A stretch of 64,000 bases of DNA from positions 1,253,260-1,317,259 of the forward strand of contig CBDCDT010000002.1 in assembly GCA_965215445.1 (NCBI GenBank), read 5' to 3'. Every line of letters begins with the position of its first letter. Positions within the stretch are counted from its first letter, which is position 1. The notes beneath the pieces were generated by a model. The model had not been told where the DNA came from, ran no database searches, and was given only the letters and a program-made list of their open reading frames with translations. Of this stretch, positions 1 to 15,346 are shown one piece after another. Source of the stretch: Bacteriovoracaceae bacterium (lineage in GTDB: Bacteria > Bdellovibrionota > Bacteriovoracia > Bacteriovoracales > Bacteriovoracaceae). Position numbers and translations under genes: made by a program.

Positions 1-3000
1 ATGCTCACAAGACTCCAAAATTATTATGAGAGAAAGGTTTCTCAAACCACGGAACGCTACCACCAGTTTATTGACAATACCACCAACGTCACCGAAGAAG
101 ATACCAAACGCTATATGGAAGCGGCATGGGAAGAGTTTACTCGTTTGAGAAATGCCAAACTCCGAGAACTTCAGGCCAAAGAAAATCAACTCAACCGAAA
201 TATTGATCTCTACAATCAATTAGTCGATGAAATCAGGCCACAAGTTGAGGAATACAAATCTCTTTCTGAACTTCAAACGCGCTTGCAAAGCAACCTTCAA
301 CAAAATGAACACCTCTACCGTGAATCCGCCCAAATCCTTGATCAAATCAACTCCATGCTCAATCCTTATATTGAACGCTATCAAGAGGCCGCAGGCCTTC
401 AAGAAACCTTAAATGGCATTATTGAGGCCTACGAATCGGGCACTCACCCTTCAGCTCAAGAAATTGCCGACATTATGGAGGATTTTGAAGCGTTCAAAGA
501 AGTGGTAGTTTTTGAACTTGAGGCCCAGGCCGACGAGTACAATGCTCTATTGGCGGCCTATAGAGAATGGCTTGAAGACATGCAAGGTTATTTGGCGAGT
601 TTGCAAAGCGAAATAACAAGTCTTGCAACGGATATTCAAGAGCAAACTGAAATCGCCAACGCCGATATTGTGGAGTATAACGATCTTGTAGATGAGCGAA
701 ACCGCTGCCGCACAAATTCTTGTGTCAGTTCCTATGACTTGGAATTGAGGCGTTTAAACGCCCGTATCAATATCCAAACGAATTATGTGGATGAACTCAA
801 AGTCAGGCATAATAATGCTGTTACCAACTACAATGGCCAATTCTCTAGGATAGAAGGAGAAAATACTGCTCAGGCAAATACCATCCAGGAACGAAGAACG
901 GTGTTGGAACGTGAAGAACAAGAGGTTTTCGAGTCCTTGGAAAACAGACAGCAGGAGGACTCTGAAGAGATTCGTGCCATTAATCTCGTTCTGGAAAATG
1001 AACTTGACGACATTCGAGAAGAAATTGAAGAGATAGAATCTTTTGTCAAGGAAGGATTGGGTGAAAACTACGCTCAAGGGATTTCGTCACACCGCGAATA
1101 TATAGATGCCATGGCAAGACACATGGCAAATCCTGAATCCTTTGTGCCCTTTCTCAACCCTATAGGGGCCACACCTGCCGTCGTTTTTTGTTCTCAGTTT
1201 CTCAAGGAAGAAAACCATACTTCCGTCTATGAATCCATTTGTGAAAATGGATACCTCGTCGATCAAAAGATGCGCACTTTTGTTGACATTTATGAAAAAC
1301 TTTCTTCGGCCAATAGAAGATTGGAGACGTTGGAAAGAGAACTCATGGCCAAGGGAGAGAAGCAACAGGAATTGGAAGGTCTTATCACCACACAACGAGA
1401 AGAGTTTTTTGCTCTTGGAGAAAGTACCAACAGGGAAATCGAGCAGTATTTACAAGATTATCAAGATGAGTTGGAAGCATTGGTACAATCTTCTGGCCAA
1501 CAAACTGGGTTGATGGCACAGATTTATCTTTTAGAGTTGAGAATCATTGAATTGGAATATCAGCTTTTGCAACAAGTAATTTTGGATACACAAGACGATG
1601 CTTCAATTCAAGAAATAAACGCTGCCAATAACGAACTCGATGCGCTCCCTCTTGTACGGGAAGGAGTGAACAACAAAGACGTTTTGGGAGAAACGAGTCT
1701 CGCCGAGGATATTTTGGCCACACAGCTAAAATCCCATACTGCCGTAGTACCATGGAGAGCTTTTTCAGGAGAAGAAAATTTCTCCGTCCAGGAAATGAGA
1801 GGAGAAGAAAAAGATGCCTTTATGGCCACTTGGTACGGAATTTTAGCGGATGCGGGAATTTTCCAGGAGAGAGCGCAAAATGGAGAACTTGAACCCTATT
1901 TTTTTGAAGTGCTTTTTAGAGAGGCGATGGGGAACGGCGTTCTTCTCAACAAGGTTTCTCTTGAAAATAACGAAGTCTCTTATCAAATTGTGGCCAATGG
2001 CAAAACCTATTGGATAGGAAGTGATGGTCAACTTTTTGAAATTCCCTTTGCCGACCTCTTTGAGTTTGAATTTAGGGCCGAATCGCGAATTGATCGAATT
2101 ATTGCGGATTATTACCAGGATTTTAAAAGTGAATTTGAACCTCTCTACGGCAATTTGGATGCTGGAAGGCAGGATGCCATCGCTTTGGCCGAAGCACTTT
2201 TGCGCGAGGCCTACGCTCTTGAAAATGAGGCCATATCCACCAGGGCCACTGGCCTTGCCGAAGGGTTGGGGCAAATTGCTCTGGGCATGACTCCGGTGGT
2301 GGGTGATGCCGTCGATCTCTACGAATTTGCCTTTGGGCGGGATATTTTTGGCAACTCAATAGGCGTGACTTCCCAAGTGGCCGCGGGGCTTGGATTTTTG
2401 TTTTTTGGCAATCGTCAAATGTGGTCATCTTTTTTAGAAAGCAGCATGGGCAGCACCATCAAACTTACCGGCAAGGGCCTTCGCAGGCCTCCTGGTGCCT
2501 TGTTAAGAGAGGCCGAAAGCATAGCGAATCTCACCACCAGAGAGGGAGCGGCGTTTCTTCAAAAGGTAGTGAAATCCGTGGATAGTGAGGTTCCCCGTGC
2601 CAAGCTGGAAAGGATTGCCCGCAGCTATAAAGCTTTGGATGAAGTGATGAAGGCAAATTTGGGCAACCTTCCCCCAAAGCAGAGTTGGGAAGTGACCAGG
2701 ACAATCAGGCAAAATGCCGATGAATCTCTTACCGCCAATGACGTATTTAGAAGCAATTATAGTGGATACGTCAGTGGTGAGGGAAGGTATGCCATTCAGG
2801 GAAATGCGGGGCTTCATGGAGCGGTGGATGCGTCAAATATGAGGGCATTGGAAACTTCCAGGGTAGAAGTTGATTTTAACCCCAATAATGAGGCAGGTTT
2901 TATTACAGGAACTAAAACCTATGAAGTCGTGACGTTGGACTTGACCAATCCAGAAATTAGGAGAAGAATTGGAGTGACAGAGAGGAATTTAATAGAACTT

Positions 3001-3147
3001 ACGGTAGACGATTCAAATGCTTATGAACTAACCCAGCAAATTGGAGACATCGCCAAAAATCTTGGTTATGAAGCAATTGTTTACCCATCAGCATCGACCA
3101 AAGGTAGAGGAAAAGCAATTGTTGTCCTCAAAGAGGAGCTTTTTTAA
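1..3147 (+). CDS. Polymorphic toxin, probably 5'-truncated by the window edge: long coiled-coil region, PT-TG-like pre-toxin motif, C-terminal RES-domain toxin
   Basis: The ORF is open from base 1. More than 750 aa are heptad-rich and E/Q/L/N-rich. 'VVGDAVDLYEFAFGRDIFGN' (nt ~2281-2355) resembles the pre-toxin TG motif. The last 123 aa (nt 2776-3144) show the RES signature: GRY..G...(ALE)...AYELTQQIGDIAKNLGYEAIVYPSAS..GKAIVV. Confidence 0.75.
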   Translation: MLTRLQNYYERKVSQTTERYHQFIDNTTNVTEEDTKRYMEAAWEEFTRLRNAKLRELQAKENQLNRNIDLYNQLVDEIRPQVEEYKSLSELQTRLQSNLQQNEHLYRESAQILDQINSMLNPYIERYQEAAGLQETLNGIIEAYESGTHPSAQEIADIMEDFEAFKEVVVFELEAQADEYNALLAAYREWLEDMQGYLASLQSEITSLATDIQEQTEIANADIVEYNDLVDERNRCRTNSCVSSYDLELRRLNARINIQTNYVDELKVRHNNAVTNYNGQFSRIEGENTAQANTIQERRTVLEREEQEVFESLENRQQEDSEEIRAINLVLENELDDIREEIEEIESFVKEGLGENYAQGISSHREYIDAMARHMANPESFVPFLNPIGATPAVVFCSQFLKEENHTSVYESICENGYLVDQKMRTFVDIYEKLSSANRRLETLERELMAKGEKQQELEGLITTQREEFFALGESTNREIEQYLQDYQDELEALVQSSGQQTGLMAQIYLLELRIIELEYQLLQQVILDTQDDASIQEINAANNELDALPLVREGVNNKDVLGETSLAEDILATQLKSHTAVVPWRAFSGEENFSVQEMRGEEKDAFMATWYGILADAGIFQERAQNGELEPYFFEVLFREAMGNGVLLNKVSLENNEVSYQIVANGKTYWIGSDGQLFEIPFADLFEFEFRAESRIDRIIADYYQDFKSEFEPLYGNLDAGRQDAIALAEALLREAYALENEAISTRATGLAEGLGQIALGMTPVVGDAVDLYEFAFGRDIFGNSIGVTSQVAAGLGFLFFGNRQMWSSFLESSMGSTIKLTGKGLRRPPGALLREAESIANLTTREGAAFLQKVVKSVDSEVPRAKLERIARSYKALDEVMKANLGNLPPKQSWEVTRTIRQNADESLTANDVFRSNYSGYVSGEGRYAIQGNAGLHGAVDASNMRALETSRVEVDFNPNNEAGFITGTKTYEVVTLDLTNPEIRRRIGVTERNLIELTVDDSNAYELTQQIGDIAKNLGYEAIVYPSASTKGRGKAIVVLKEELF

Positions 3148-3558
3148 ATGACATTTAGACTAGATAAAATTGCAAATATTATCAAACAGGAATGGGATAC
3201 AGAAAAACGATATAGGGAAATGAGAAAAGTTCTAGTTGATATATACAAAGCAGATTTTTTTGGAGATGAAGAGAAAAAATTCATTCCGACAACAAAAGAA
3301 GTCTCCACTAAAAATTTTGTTTACAAATGGAGCAATTGGTTTGGCACTCGAAGAATCTACTGGGAAGACTGGAGTGATATTTGCGAGGAAGGATTAAATT
3401 TAACATTAAAATTTATCGAGAGTGATTTTGAGGATTTTAAAGAAATAACAGAATGTAAAGAATTAATCCAAAAGCATTTTGACAGAATCGACGAACTTCA
3501 AAAAAGCAGCAAATACACTGAAGAACAAAAAATGGCATGGAATGATATGGGTTATTAA
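3148..3558 (+). CDS. Putative cognate immunity protein for the RES toxin (family unknown)
   Basis: Its ATG directly follows the toxin stop codon (TAA|ATG at 3145-3150). It is 136 aa, acidic and W-rich, and much more AT-rich than the toxin body. This position is typical of polymorphic-toxin immunity genes. I recognise no motif. Confidence 0.55.
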   Translation: MTFRLDKIANIIKQEWDTEKRYREMRKVLVDIYKADFFGDEEKKFIPTTKEVSTKNFVYKWSNWFGTRRIYWEDWSDICEEGLNLTLKFIESDFEDFKEITECKELIQKHFDRIDELQKSSKYTEEQKMAWNDMGY

Positions 3559-3630
3559 AACTTGTCTCGCAAATGCATAAAAATAAAAATTAGCCTTTTA
3601 TAAAAAACATTTCAAAAAAGAGTGCTTTTA

Positions 3631-4058
3631 ATGAAAACTGATCTTCAATCTTTTGATAATGTCGTTATTGACTTAATCGTTTTCTCTGATTCTGAAAACG
3701 AGGTTTTAATTCAAAAAAGGTCTCCCCAAAGAAGATTATTTCCCAATCAATGGGATTTCATTGGGGGCATTTAGAACCAAATGAAAGCATTGAAGAATGT
3801 ATTTCCAGAGAACTTACAGAAGAGACTTCCATGAAAGTTTCTTCTGTAAAAAAACAACTATTAACGAAAGAACAAAATGATAGAAACGCAATCAATATGG
3901 TCAATGTTGTTCAGGCCAAAGGAAACTTTGTTGCTGAAAAAGATAAAATTACTGAACACCGATGGGTAACTCAATCGAACCTCGAAGAATTAAAAAACGA
4001 CCCATGCTGTAGTGATTATATTTTTACGACACTTGAAGAATACTTCAACCATTTATAA
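3631..4058 (+). pseudogene. NUDIX hydrolase split by a -1 frameshift in a G5 run
   Basis: The frame from ATG 3631 reads ...FPNQWDFIGG and then hits TAG at 3772-3774. The ORF-track frame from 3750 continues GHLEPNESIEECISRELTEETS, a Nudix box (GX5EX7REUXEEXGU-like). Adding one G to the run at 3763-3767 restores WDFIGGHLEPNE. Confidence 0.75.
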
Positions 4059-4075
4059 GTTTTCCAAATTCAAGT

Positions 4076-4105
4076 TTGCCGTAATCTAAACGGCAAGTAT
4101 TTTTT
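4076..4105 (+). terminator. Rho-independent terminator after the NUDIX gene
   Basis: TTGCCGT / ACGGCAA stem (extendable by G-U pairs), 7-nt loop AATCTAA, followed by TATTTTTT. Confidence 0.6.
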
Positions 4106-4141
4106 GTCCAAAACGAAATTTTGTAACCGGAGTTATTTTTT

Positions 4142-4408
4142 ATGAAACTTTTTCTTTTGCTATTTTCTTTTTCCACCTGGGGAGAATTTTCTGAACTCTC
4201 ACAAAAAGAACTTTACCAACACGGCAAAAGGCGACCTTTAAAATCAAAACTAAAAACCAAGTCCAGGCTAAAACAAAAATTTAGGCCCCGAAAAAACAAA
4301 GATGTGGCACTAAAGAAATTGATTGAACAAGATCAAAAAATTTTAGGCCTTTTAGAGGCAAGTTCCAAACAACTGGTCATCAAGAGAAAGGAGGAAAAAG
4401 GTAGGTAA
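4142..4408 (+). CDS. Hypothetical small Lys/Arg-rich protein with an N-terminal hydrophobic segment
   Basis: 88-aa ORF with GGAG about 9 nt upstream of the ATG. No recognisable domain. The composition is low-complexity and basic. Confidence 0.35.
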   Translation: MKLFLLLFSFSTWGEFSELSQKELYQHGKRRPLKSKLKTKSRLKQKFRPRKNKDVALKKLIEQDQKILGLLEASSKQLVIKRKEEKGR

Positions 4409-4530: not shown

Positions 4531-4607
4531 TGGCGGGAGCGACGAGACTCGAACTCGCGACCTTCGGCGTGACAGGCCGATGTTGTAACCAACTCAACTA
4601 CGCCCCC
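4531..4607 (-). tRNA. tRNA-Asp (anticodon GUC), CCA encoded
   Basis: The reverse complement reads GGGGGCGTAGTTGAGTTGGTTACAACATCGGCCTGTCACGCCGAAGGTCGCGAGTTCGAGTCTCGTCGCTCCCGCCA. It has a cloverleaf with 7-bp acceptor stem (one G-U), anticodon stem TCGGC/GCCGA, loop CTGTCAC, and a GTTCGAGTC T-loop. Confidence 0.93.
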
Positions 4608-11829: not shown

Positions 11830-12491
11830 TGAAAATTGCATTTTTACTTTTTTGGAGTTCATTTATTTTTGCGCTCTCGCCTCCCCCCGAGGTTCCCGAG
11901 GGTGAACTCATAAAAGAAGATTTTATTTTAAAGACACTGGCCAAAAAAAAGGGCCAAGTCTGGCCGGAAATTGAAGTTTGGGCCTTTATCCAAGCGCCCA
12001 CTCTGGTTTCGACGGCCATTTTTGCCGCTTACGATTATCAAAAAGAGTATATTCCCAATCTTATAAGGAGTGAAGTTGTGAATCAACCTTCGCCCACGGA
12101 AGTTCACGTCAGCTACGAATTGGATTTAACCTGGCCGATTCCCAACCAGCGCTATACCCATGGACACCATCTCTCCAGTCCACAAAAGGAACACTATCGG
12201 GTGAGTTGGTTTGTGTTGCAATCCGATTCCATGAAAGCGCTGAATGGATTTGCCTACTTTCGGCCCTATCAGTTGGGAGGCCGTCAGGGCACTTTGATGA
12301 CTTACCGATCTCTTGCCGAACCCAAGGCCAGTTGGACGGGTATCCTGGGCCGCTTTATGGTCAAGGATGTCGAGCGCAGCTTGCGCACCACTGTTAAGAC
12401 CATTGAAAACTTGCATGCAGGGAAAAATCCCCTGATCGAGCGCTACTCGATCAAAATTCGCCGTGCCCTCAACGGGCAAACCGCCTATTAA
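11829..12491 (+). CDS. Secreted protein, tentatively SRPBCC/START-like
   Basis: The start overlaps the upstream stop (TAATG). It has signal peptide MKIAFLLFWSSFIFALS. The size and alternating pattern fit a START-like fold, but the assignment is weak. Confidence 0.45.
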   Translation: MKIAFLLFWSSFIFALSPPPEVPEGELIKEDFILKTLAKKKGQVWPEIEVWAFIQAPTLVSTAIFAAYDYQKEYIPNLIRSEVVNQPSPTEVHVSYELDLTWPIPNQRYTHGHHLSSPQKEHYRVSWFVLQSDSMKALNGFAYFRPYQLGGRQGTLMTYRSLAEPKASWTGILGRFMVKDVERSLRTTVKTIENLHAGKNPLIERYSIKIRRALNGQTAY

Positions 12492-15190
12492 TCGGAGAGA
12501 ATCTTGGCCACCAGCGTTTTGCAATCGGCACTTCTTGCGATTAATTTCTCGTTGGTGACCTCGGAAAAAGCGACAGTGTTTTCCAACATGGCCTGGTTAA
12601 TCAATCTTTCAAAGAAGACATCCATGCGTTCAGAGGCCCCTTCCAGTTTTTCGTGACTCATAAGGGCCAAATTTTTAATATTGTTTCTTACCCAATCGCC
12701 AAGTCTGGCACTTCTGACGCCGCGTTTTTTTAAGACGCCTACGAGCTTGTCAAACTCTTCTGCATCAATGGACGAAAAGTCGGTGAGATTTTGAAACACC
12801 ATTTCATCTACGATTTTGCGGGCCTCTTCTTTGCTGGTAAATTCTGCAAAAAATGCCTGTATGTGCCTGGCCACTGGTTCGAGGCGTTTTCCTTTTATGC
12901 TTGTAATGCTAAGAGCGCCTTTGGTAAGAATTTTTATAATTTTGTCATCGGCCATACTGCGTTTTTTCAAGGTGGCAGCCAAATTTTTAAGCTTTGCCAT
13001 ATCGGCAAAATAAAATCCATGAAGATTTTTAATAATCATTTCATCGACCGTTATTTTGGCCTTTTCAGCACTCAATCCGAGACTTTCAAAGAAGGCCTGC
13101 ATTTGGTTTGCTTTTAATTTCAGACCTTCGGCCTTGGCATAGGCAGTGCCTGCAACATTTCCCGCCAGAGTTTTTGCTATCTTGTCATCGGGGATGTTGC
13201 GCTCTCTTAGTGCGGCGACCAGCGCATCAAAGGGTTCGATTTTAATGCTTATAAAAACATCGAAATTGTTGAGCATCATTTGATCGACCACTGCGGCCCC
13301 AAAAAAGTTGTCCATGTGCTGGATCATCGGATTCAATTTTTTAAGTCTGAAGTCGGCAATGCCCTTAATATCCCCTTTGACTAATTCTTGCAGCAAAGTT
13401 TCCGAGAAACTCCGATTCCTAAGGTAGTTAAGTGTTATGTCCATCTCTCTGGGTACGATGCGGGAAATGCTGATCAAATCCTTGAGCGCAATTTGGTTGA
13501 CAATTTCTGCGGCATTTTTTTCGTCGAGAAAAAGAGCATCGAGGTGTTCGATTCCCCTCTTGAAATTTCTCGTCTTGATTTTGGAGAGGCCTTCGATATT
13601 TTTTCTAAAGGCCGGTTGTATTTTTTCTTTAGGGACATTTCGCTTTTTTAAAAAATCCTGGAGTTCGTCAAGTTCACTAGTGTCGAGATTGGTAAAGCGA
13701 GAGAGATTTTGCAGCATCATCTCGTCAGTAACCTCTTTGGCATCGCCTCCTCCACCAAAGAGGGCCTGCATATAAGTGGACACAAATTCCAAGCGTTTTT
13801 TTCTGGCCAGTGCCGTGCCTTCGGAACTTTTTATGAAGGCCTCGGCAATCCGTTTACCGGGGATGCCACGCTTTCTCAAAAAAACGGTGATTTGATCGAG
13901 TTCACGCAGGTTGATACGGGAATAACTGCCGAGATTTCCGAGCATCATTTCATTGGTGGCCGATTTGGGATTTTCAATTCCGACACTTTTAAAAAATATT
14001 TCCATGTGCCGAGTGATGGGTTTTAGGCGTTTTTCCCTGGCCGACTCTATCCCGTCGATATTTTTTCTAAAGGTTTGATTGATTCTCTCTTCGGGAATGT
14101 CTCGGTTGCGCATAAAGAGGCGCACTTTATCCAGTTCCTTAAAATTCATTGAGTAAAAATCGGTCAGATTTTTGAACATCATTTGATTGACAGCTTCCCG
14201 AACGCTTGTGAGTGCTTTGACTCCACCTCCATCAAAAAACATTTCTTCCAAGTGTCGGGCATTATTGCGTAGACGGCGGCTGCGGGCAATGGCGATGCCC
14301 TTGATATTTCTGGAAATCAGCTCTTTAATTTTATCTTCTTCGATGGGGCGACTTCTAAAAAAACGAATCACTCTTTTGAACGGTCGCAGTTTAATGCTGG
14401 CAAAATCGGCGGTGTTTTTTAACATCATGTCTTTAACAATCTCCCACGATTGCAGGTAATCATCCATAAAATCCAGGTGGTCTTCCAAACGGGAAACAAA
14501 TTCTTCCTGGTATTGCATATCCAAAGAAAAAAAGCGCTCCCACAAATGAGACATGGTCGCCTTGGGATCAAGGCCTTCCAGGCGGCCGCGTTTGTCGAAG
14601 ATATTTTGGAAAAGGCTGACCAGTTTATTTCCCTCCTTAACTTGATAGTGGCGCAAGTCTTTTTCAAGGTTTTCAAGTATGTCTTCAGGGGGTGTTTTTG
14701 TGGTTCTAAAAAAATCAATCAAAGCGAGGGCCACATTTTCATTGATATTTCTGTCCATGCCGGAAAGGGATTTCATGAGTTTGTTGGCGGCCGCCTCCTT
14801 GCCCGCCCAGGCGTAGAGCGTTTGCGTTGTTTTTTTAAAGACCCGATATTTTGTGGTTTTGAAATAGGAAGGGCGTTTCAATTGTTTCAAAGTCTCCTGC
14901 ACTCCAATTTTTTCTACCATCGACTGCAAAAATTCCCTCGCCTCCTGGGGCGTCCACCATTTGGTATTAATAGTGATTCTCGCCGACCAAAGTGGAGAGT
15001 CACCCTTGAGCTTCATCTTCTCTTCAAAGTGGGCCCCGTAATGTTTGCGGGCAAAGTCGATAAAAACTGAGGCGGCGGTCTCGCTCCTTTGAGTTTCCAC
15101 CACAAAAGGAATTTTGCCTTGCTCTTGGGCCAAAAGTAGAGAGGGCAGAAGGCCCGCTAAAAGGGAAATTTTCAATAAATTCAGCAACAT
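12488..15190 (-). CDS. Secreted tandem-repeat (alpha-helical repeat) protein, ~900 aa
   Basis: Start chosen at ATG 15190 (MLLNLLKISLLAGLLPSLLLAQEQ signal peptide, AAGGA upstream). About 8.5 copies of a ~78-aa repeat run from residue ~255 of the mature call to the C-terminus. Confidence 0.75.
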   Translation of the reverse strand: MLLNLLKISLLAGLLPSLLLAQEQGKIPFVVETQRSETAASVFIDFARKHYGAHFEEKMKLKGDSPLWSARITINTKWWTPQEAREFLQSMVEKIGVQETLKQLKRPSYFKTTKYRVFKKTTQTLYAWAGKEAAANKLMKSLSGMDRNINENVALALIDFFRTTKTPPEDILENLEKDLRHYQVKEGNKLVSLFQNIFDKRGRLEGLDPKATMSHLWERFFSLDMQYQEEFVSRLEDHLDFMDDYLQSWEIVKDMMLKNTADFASIKLRPFKRVIRFFRSRPIEEDKIKELISRNIKGIAIARSRRLRNNARHLEEMFFDGGGVKALTSVREAVNQMMFKNLTDFYSMNFKELDKVRLFMRNRDIPEERINQTFRKNIDGIESAREKRLKPITRHMEIFFKSVGIENPKSATNEMMLGNLGSYSRINLRELDQITVFLRKRGIPGKRIAEAFIKSSEGTALARKKRLEFVSTYMQALFGGGGDAKEVTDEMMLQNLSRFTNLDTSELDELQDFLKKRNVPKEKIQPAFRKNIEGLSKIKTRNFKRGIEHLDALFLDEKNAAEIVNQIALKDLISISRIVPREMDITLNYLRNRSFSETLLQELVKGDIKGIADFRLKKLNPMIQHMDNFFGAAVVDQMMLNNFDVFISIKIEPFDALVAALRERNIPDDKIAKTLAGNVAGTAYAKAEGLKLKANQMQAFFESLGLSAEKAKITVDEMIIKNLHGFYFADMAKLKNLAATLKKRSMADDKIIKILTKGALSITSIKGKRLEPVARHIQAFFAEFTSKEEARKIVDEMVFQNLTDFSSIDAEEFDKLVGVLKKRGVRSARLGDWVRNNIKNLALMSHEKLEGASERMDVFFERLINQAMLENTVAFSEVTNEKLIARSADCKTLVAKILSD
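12491..14428 (-). repeat. Protein-level tandem repeat region (~8.5 x ~75-82 aa)
   Basis: Units begin MMLKNTADF / MMFKNLTDF / MMLGNLGSY / MMLQNLSRF / IALKDLISI / MMLNNFDVF / MIIKNLHGF / MVFQNLTDF / AMLENTVAF. Each contains ..ELD....FL(R/K)(K/N)R.IP...I...F.KNI.G.......L.P...HM..FF. Confidence 0.7.
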
Positions 15191-15346
15191 AAGCTCGATC
15201 CTTTGGTTATTGGTTCGCTTGAAGGCGCAAAGCATAATTTGCTATTTTTGCCAAGTCAATATTTTTTTACCGAATGTGAAAAAAAGTATAGACAAGGCCC
15301 TTGACTCAGCCTATAAACAGCGCATCTATCGGAACATAGGAGAGAA

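Follow-up and report, generated by a model that had tools for sequence, protein, structure and literature searches.

The 64,000-nucleotide stretch of contig CBDCDT010000002.1 analysed here (hereafter, the window) opens inside a gene for a large protein that ends in a RES domain, and a small second gene starts on the base after its stop codon. We consider it probable, with a modest reserve, that the two genes encode a polymorphic toxin, exported through Sec and ending in a RES domain, and its cognate immunity protein, and that their source is a bacterium related to the Bacteriovoracaceae (Bdellovibrionota). An exported polymorphic toxin of this kind had been proposed in a preliminary description made from the sequence letters, and the proposal is supported by a signal peptide, by swapped C-termini and by orphan cassettes in relatives. 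The evidence that carries it is directly established: the domain identities, the fold, the conservation of R929, E956 and S1030, the signal peptide, the swapping of modules and the strict adjacency of toxin and immunity genes.

The predicted order along the toxin is signal peptide, helical and partly coiled-coil stalk, middle region, PT-TG-type module and RES domain. The parts that lie in the window are listed below; residues are numbered from the window translation unless they are assigned to the database copy P0004.

1..3147, + strand: toxin gene, last 1048 codons and stop codon (open reading frame (ORF) open at base 1; TAA at 3145-3147)
151..1362, + strand: helical region with abundant Glu, Gln and Lys, parts of which are heptad-like (our own heptad-register scan)
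1696..2271, + strand: middle region without coiled coil, residues ~566-757 (composition; tblastn match of the L002 toxin from nucleotide 1696)
2272..2400, + strand: PT-TG-like pre-toxin module, residues 758-800, IALGMTPVVGDAVDLYEFAFGRDIFGN (PF14449, 14.1 bits; phmmer links)
2401..2691, + strand: linker from the pre-toxin module to the RES domain, with the conserved helix RIARSYKALDEVM (alignments with P0005, P0007, P0008 and P0009)
2692..3144, + strand: RES (Tox-RES) toxin domain, residues 898-1048 (PF08808, AlphaFold model, Foldseek)
3148..3558, + strand: candidate immunity gene, 136 residues, cytoplasmic, all-helical (ATG at 3148, the base after the toxin TAA)

RES domain, pre-toxin module and N-terminal part of the toxin

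The C-terminal ~150 codons of the toxin gene encode a genuine RES domain, with a signal far above chance. The Pfam model PF08808 (cut-off 23.2 bits) scores 26.9 bits (E=5.4e-6) on the isolated residues 898-1048, 26.3 bits on residues 834-1048 and 22.8 bits, just below the cut-off, on the whole protein. RES is also matched by 35 of 38 aligned C-terminal domains of relatives found with phmmer (best E=2e-20). Direct PDB sequence searches with the single toxin sequence returned nothing meaningful; with a profile made from the family C-terminal alignment, the best PDB sequence match is MbcT (6FKG; E=0.013). The AlphaFold2 model of residues 898-1048, built on the family alignment, has a predicted local distance difference test score (pLDDT) of 90.9 and a predicted template-modelling score (pTM) of 0.85. 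Its nine best Foldseek matches in the PDB are all RES toxins (NatT, Pseudomonas putida Xre-RES, MbcT and ParT), and noise follows them. Probabilities are 0.96-1.00 for ranks 1-5 and then 0.93, 0.77, 0.69 and 0.57, with modest E values of 4e-3 to 0.17; MbcT is matched with a template-modelling (TM) score of 0.62 and probability 1.0, and ParT with a TM score of 0.43 and probability 0.77. The preliminary description had named the domain correctly and placed its start too late, as it begins ~30 codons earlier, at residue 898 (nucleotide 2692).

The motifs GRY, ALE and YPSAS had been put forward as carrying the Arg, Glu and Ser of the RES domain. All three occur where they were described. Over 66 family C-termini, the Arg of GRY (R929, nucleotides 2785-2787) is present in 66/66 and the Ser of YPSAS (S1030, 3088-3090) in 64/66. 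The Glu of ALE (E951), conserved in 28/66 only, is not the invariant one, which is E956 within RVEVD (2866-2868; 66/66). In stand-alone RES-like members the motif Glu follows the Tyr by 11 residues, as in MbcT (Y58/E69; PMC6436930), and this spacing maps onto E956. The conserved RES motif is Arg, Glu and Ser in that order (R47-E69-S126 in MbcT), with an upstream Arg in beta1 and a Tyr; the alignment of a counterpart to the beta1 Arg (R900 or R903) is not reliable.

Upstream of the linker lies a stretch that resembles PT-TG (PF14449) pre-toxin modules. The sequence singled out in the preliminary description, VVGDAVDLYEFAFGRDIFGN, is located at residues 766-785 (nucleotide 2296). The stretch aligns (phmmer, E 1e-15 to 1e-6, in a local set) with P0028, P0054, P0089, P0045 and P0005, whose own PT-TG modules pass the cut-off with 24-39.7 bits. 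The window module is tied to PT-TG by this homology to passing modules; its own score, considered below, is under the cut-off.

The module (residues 734-845) recurs with non-RES C-termini in P0022, P0028, P0042, P0054, P0089 and P0073; the C-terminus of P0073, behind the common pre-toxin module, is a Colicin-DNase/WHH nuclease. By tblastn, the 1114-residue toxin of locus L003 aligns with the window toxin only from nucleotide 2275 (the PT-TG module) onward, and the 1138-residue toxin of locus L002 only from nucleotide 1696 onward. The N-terminal regions of both are unrelated to the window protein, and their toxin ends are related to it. Some RES relatives form the ends of Rhs/YD-repeat proteins (P0079/L008, P0091, P0094 and P0095). 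Modules are swapped among the relatives of the window toxin, and the pre-toxin module appears from these alignments to be the point at which C-terminal cassettes are exchanged. The guanine-cytosine (GC) fraction is 0.49-0.54 at nucleotides 2001-2800, 0.39 at 2801-3200, 0.31 at 3201-3600 and ~0.30-0.34 from there to roughly nucleotide 4400. This drop, which spans the immunity gene and the last ~350 nucleotides of the toxin gene, is consistent with recombination of a cassette.

The toxin had been called giant, a term that does not suit its full length of 1097 residues. This length is known from P0004, residues 50-1097 of which are identical to the window translation; 49 codons of the gene lie outside the window, upstream of base 1. 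P0004 came up when 1.84 billion representative proteins were searched exhaustively with phmmer, and this search gave 92 relatives. A word-index homologue search with residues 734-1048 gave zero matches, although the identical P0004 is in that collection. Word-index negatives should be read with caution, because the identical protein was missed there and exhaustive HMMER searching returned the 92 relatives.

P0004 begins MKYLLTFTALFPLFSLSAQK, and the 49 residues missing from the window read MRQESTNPAHKHIRRTDH-MKYLLTFTALFPLFSLSAQKV. This N-terminus starts with positive charge, contains a hydrophobic core and a cleavage motif of small residues, and lacks a lipobox; the stretch MKYLLTFTALFPLFSLSA, followed by QK, resembles a signal peptide of the Sec type, which is placed at P0004 residues 19-37. 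By a crude hydropathy criterion, a hydrophobic N-terminus was found in 32/49 long homologues versus 5/49 at an internal control position, and in none of the downstream 136-residue immunity proteins. No markers of type V, VI or VII secretion systems (T5SS, T6SS and T7SS) were found. The preliminary description had reported no secretion marker, which is correct for the part of the protein within the window; the trafficking marker was invisible to it because the signal peptide sits just upstream of base 1, in the missing 49 residues.

Everything upstream of the pre-toxin module had been described as heptad-rich coiled coil. Heptads do exceed the expectation from shuffled sequences, with high-scoring windows making up 27% of residues 1-720 versus 2% +/- 3% in shuffles, and they occupy only parts of residues 50-455. 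The heptad-like (coiled-coil-type) segments are residues 51-79, 167-232, 239-269, 322-351 and 419-454, and the Pfam matches are weak and of coiled-coil type. Aromatic residues, Gly and Pro are abundant in the middle region, residues ~580-720 included, and that stretch looks globular. The middle region is ~30% identical to the 1138-residue toxin of a Bacteriovoracaceae metagenome-assembled genome (MAG).

Immunity candidate, related loci and downstream genes

As the preliminary description noted, the toxin ORF is open at base 1, and the next ORF begins on the base after the toxin stop codon (ATG at 3148) and is AT-rich (GC 0.31 at 3201-3600). Its 136-residue product is a good candidate for the immunity protein, from a rare, undescribed family with the conserved core WFGTRxIxFEDWSDICEEGLxLTLKFIESD. 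Neither the protein alone nor a 14-member profile of the family has a Pfam, NCBIfam or PDB sequence match, and a direct PDB search with the single sequence gave nothing meaningful. The 14 family members and the downstream partners of loci L005, L006 and L007 have no Imm-family Pfam match at E<=1. The AlphaFold model (pLDDT 93) is all-alpha, with six helices, and Foldseek finds no neighbour for it in PDB or BFVD (best E=0.56, TM <=0.45). The earlier proposal that the partner is not an Xre protein and possibly represents an undescribed immunity family is in agreement with these results, there being no match in Pfam, NCBIfam or PDB.

Imm51 (PF15595), the immunity family listed for Tox-RES toxins, was considered and ruled out. 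The window family differs from Imm51 because the Imm51 Pfam model gives no match; in addition, the immunity model is all-alpha, whereas Imm51 is described as an alpha+beta fold with W and Dx[DE] motifs (PMC3482391).

The family is sparsely represented. Thirteen relatives were found in a collection of 5.8 billion proteins, none with a Pfam domain, and their sources are a few ENA metagenome contigs plus two NCBI assemblies. A scan of genome contigs with the immunity alignment found one locus only, in a Bacteriovoracaceae MAG that is the sole GTDB species representative with the family. The genome-contig scan with the whole toxin and a scan of JGI metagenomes with the immunity alignment both found nothing, and no PLSDB plasmid matched either the immunity protein or the RES domain by tblastn.

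Wherever the context is readable (L001, L002, L003, L005 and L006), the immunity gene is located directly 3' of the RES toxin end. In the window, L001, L002, L003 and L005 the immunity ORF directly adjoins the toxin stop codon or overlaps it, and in L006 it begins 16 nucleotides further on. L003 has a full-length toxin and an immunity gene with a 4-nucleotide overlap, and L005 has an 839-residue toxin and an immunity gene. In L002, a full-length toxin and its immunity gene are followed by an orphan 101-residue RES fragment and a second immunity paralogue, and in an array at positions 1-3900 of L001, an ENA contig, four or more immunity paralogues alternate with fragments of RES C-termini. Orphan cassettes of toxin end and immunity gene occur in both L001 and L002. 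The L006 toxin is ~25-30% identical to that of the window over their common region, and the 164-residue ORF downstream of it matches the immunity profile (8.7e-15). Among more distant toxins, the partners are marginally similar in L007 and L009 and unrelated in L008, which is Rhs-linked. Beyond the toxin/immunity pair, the window shares no synteny with the related loci.

Two further observations concern these loci. Several copies within the L001 array are frameshifted, which could reflect either decay of orphan cassettes or long-read errors. In L006 (545-1639), L007 (545-4004) and L009 (1-2999), one or two large genes (364-601 residues) without a Pfam match abut the distant toxin gene on its upstream side, often with overlapping stop and start codons, and the toxins carry a signal peptide. 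These upstream genes may encode accessory or export partners.

The features downstream of the pair in the window are as follows.

3631..4058, + strand: NUDIX hydrolase gene in two frames (3622-3774 and 3750-4058), split at a five-G run (3763-3767)
4074-4098, no strand assigned: terminator-like hairpin and T-run, the nearest site of this kind downstream of the toxin, immunity and NUDIX genes
4531-4607, - strand: transfer RNA (tRNA) gene tRNA-Asp (GTC), at the boundary of the AT-rich islet; the flank has a GC fraction of ~0.48-0.56

Adding one G at the run yields a 142-residue product whose Nudix box is intact (58 bits on PF00293). The frameshift is either a homopolymer assembly error or the mark of a recent pseudogene. 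There is no terminator between the immunity and NUDIX genes, and the toxin, immunity and NUDIX genes may share a transcript. A NUDIX enzyme that clears ADP-ribose-type products would make an attractive functional link. As a conserved third component, however, the gene was rejected: the homologous loci L001, L002, L003 and L005 lack it, and we therefore do not count it towards the system.

The islet at ~3200-4400 (GC 0.30-0.35) contains the immunity gene, the NUDIX gene and an 88-residue ORF, and housekeeping genes are found in the flank. That the AT-rich islet ends near tRNA-Asp suggests horizontally acquired DNA. A search for direct repeats marking island integration at this tRNA gene found short, chance-level repeats only, the upstream end being outside the window. 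The 88-residue ORF (4142-4408, + strand), between the NUDIX and tRNA-Asp genes, encodes a Lys-rich protein with the hydrophobic N-terminus MKLFLLLFSFSTWG and no Pfam family. Elsewhere in the window, a 915-residue ORF (12488-15235, - strand) matches the Pfam family mTERF (PF02536, 26.5 bits, cut-off 23.1), a mainly organellar and eukaryotic family that is unusual for a bacterium.

Proposed function and alternative explanations

In the proposed mechanism, the toxin precursor would be exported through Sec, the helical stalk and middle region would serve in presentation or delivery, and the part from the PT-TG module onward would be an exchangeable warhead. Within the cytoplasm of the target, the RES domain would consume nicotinamide adenine dinucleotide (NAD+), and possibly also NADP+, by phosphorolysis or hydrolysis. 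The 136-residue cytoplasmic protein, encoded on the next base, would bind and block the RES domain in the producer and its kin. We infer the destruction of NAD+ because MbcT, NatT and the P. putida RES toxin act in this way, and MbcT is a NAD+ phosphorylase (PMC6436930). That the immunity protein binds the toxin and protects the producer, how export proceeds past Sec and which organism is targeted are inferences as well.

Several observations weigh against this reading of the locus. The PT-TG score of the window module is 14.1 bits (E=0.047), below the cut-off of 23.5, and the eponymous TG is replaced by FG. The signal peptide is present in the database copy alone, outside the window, and was judged by eye and by hydropathy. 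Neither an outer-membrane translocation device nor a target-entry device was identified for the toxin, and the window has one toxin/immunity pair and zero orphan cassettes. Within the RES domain, H939 (2815-2817) stands at the position of a Tyr that is conserved in 62/66 family members (His in 3/66, including the window), and A1039 at the position of a C-terminal Asn conserved in 57/66. In MbcT, the mutant Y58A, altered at the position equivalent to H939, is non-toxic (PMC6436930).

The RES domain of the window toxin is nonetheless likely to be active, to judge from comparison with its relatives, because the His recurs in the closest homologues (P0005/L003), which also retain the immunity gene, and because the 'region 3' residue equivalent to the Asn is Gly in fully active MbcT (PMC6436930).

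The alternative that survives best, although we regard it as somewhat unlikely, is that the RES toxin is a predation or host-directed weapon, secreted to kill prey and not for competition among kin, and that its partner only shields the producer from toxin that folds before export. The molecular system would be identical to the one proposed above, and the ecological target would be different. Precedents for such shielding are IFS for SPN and IFT for TNT, which protect the producer from toxin folding before export. The only named relative of the locus is a MAG of the Bacteriovoracaceae, a family of bacterial predators, and both Sec-type export without a T5SS, T6SS or T7SS marker and a cytoplasmic immunity protein are compatible with predation. 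However, the orphan arrays and diversified immunity paralogues (in L001, in L002 and in a 29-kb ENA contig) are the signature of an arms race between strains, and no mechanism of prey entry is evident. A broader scenario would have the 136-residue protein found an undescribed immunity family of new helical fold, which would neutralise RES toxins in another way than the C-terminal plug used by Xre/DUF2384 antitoxins; RES toxins with a signal peptide would form a lineage-specific arsenal of Bdellovibrionota-like predators and drain NAD+ from prey or rivals; and the NUDIX enzyme might contribute a second layer, clearing ADP-ribose-type products. As a whole, this combination is unlikely.

Also distinctly unlikely is a RES domain that ADP-ribosylates a protein, as ParT does with Prs, or whose specificity is altered in another way, so that NAD+ would not be depleted in bulk. 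In favour of this, the structural matches include ParT (6D0H), His and Ala replace the consensus Tyr and Asn in the window domain, and the RES family belongs to the ADP-ribosyltransferase (ART) superfamily (PMC9503650). However, NAD+-degrading members outrank ParT in the structural comparison given above (MbcT with the higher TM score and probability), and the best profile match is MbcT; specificity is not readable from the sequence.

Decay or loss of catalysis in the toxin, which would make the pair a relic within the AT-rich islet, is improbable. The changes of Tyr to H939 and of Asn to A1039, together with the frameshift in the adjacent NUDIX gene, might be taken as signs of decay, but the 3.3-kb toxin ORF and the immunity ORF are intact and R929, E956 and S1030 are kept. 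Furthermore, the His at the Tyr position is shared with P0005/L003, where an immunity gene is retained, MbcT is highly active with Gly at the Asn position, and the NUDIX frameshift lies in a homopolymer and may be an assembly error. Finally, a classical intracellular RES type II toxin-antitoxin module fused by chance to a long structural protein is highly improbable: RES domains are best known from Xre-RES toxin-antitoxin pairs, but Pfam and NCBIfam scans of the partner find no Xre, DUF2384 or helix-turn-helix protein, the partner gene is downstream rather than upstream, the toxin has a signal peptide, ~900 residues of non-toxin sequence and a PT-TG module, C-termini are swapped among its relatives and related loci contain orphan cassettes.

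Relation to known toxins

RES toxins had been taken in the preliminary description to be normally small and stand-alone, and export to be a novelty. This premise is out of date, because Tox-RES (PF08808) was catalogued as a polymorphic-toxin domain in 2012 (Zhang, de Souza, Anantharaman, Iyer & Aravind, Biol Direct 7:18; PMC3482391). That listing associates Tox-RES with trafficking by type II (T2SS), T5SS and T6SS, with RHS and filamentous-haemagglutinin (FilH) repeats, with Imm51 immunity and with the DUF2384 antitoxin of toxin-antitoxin systems (PMC3482391). A Rhs-RES T6SS effector, Tfe2, has since been predicted in Pseudomonas fluorescens F113 (PMC7970981).

Like Tox-RES polymorphic toxins, the window locus places a PF08808 domain at the C-terminus of a long exported protein and an immunity gene downstream of it; exchange of cassettes and, in related loci, orphan modules are further common features, and its signal-peptide ('T2SS') trafficking class is already listed for them (PMC3482391). 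It is unlike them in that its N-terminal region is a coiled-coil stalk instead of RHS or filamentous-haemagglutinin repeats, in that its immunity protein is not Imm51 (no PF15595 match, all-helical) and in its Bdellovibrionota-like lineage.

With the Xre-RES toxins MbcT (6FKG), P. putida RES (6GW6/9R35), NatT (8QNL/8QNQ) and ParT (6D0H), the window domain shares the fold, the R...E...S order and, presumably, NAD+ as the substrate. Those toxins are cytoplasmic proteins of 145-250 residues, and the upstream gene encodes an Xre/DUF2384 antitoxin that plugs the active site. In contrast, the window domain forms the tip of a secreted 1097-residue protein with an unrelated downstream partner, and has His in place of MbcT Y58.

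The combination of an exported C-terminus predicted to destroy NAD+ with an adjacent small cytoplasmic inhibitor also recalls CpnT/TNT-IFT of Mycobacterium tuberculosis, SPN-IFS of Streptococcus pyogenes and Tse6-Tsi6 of Pseudomonas aeruginosa. The logic of secreted NADase toxins with dedicated immunity factors is well established. The toxins of those systems have different folds and belong to different families, and they use different secretion routes (ESX, cytolysin-mediated translocation (CMT) and T6SS, respectively). Secreted NADase toxins with immunity factors (TNT, SPN and Tse6) are named in a study of MbcT (PMC6436930).

The RES domain as the warhead of a polymorphic toxin has been known since 2012, and only the immunity family is new. 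This locus is set apart by its Bdellovibrionota-like lineage, by the coiled-coil design of its N-terminal region and by an immunity family without annotation; otherwise, it is a well-supported, largely ordinary polymorphic toxin/immunity pair, and the general picture of RES domains or polymorphic toxins is unchanged by it. Secreted RES toxins have been predicted since 2012, and no experimentally characterised one was found in the literature searched; the enzymology of RES proteins comes from the cytoplasmic toxin-antitoxin toxins MbcT, NatT, P. putida RES and ParT. As a compact toxin/immunity pair, the locus lends itself to experiment, and it comes from a little-studied and probably predatory lineage. 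Because the immunity protein has no relative in sequence or structure, the structure of the toxin-immunity complex could show a new mode of inhibition for a NAD+ consumer of the ART fold.

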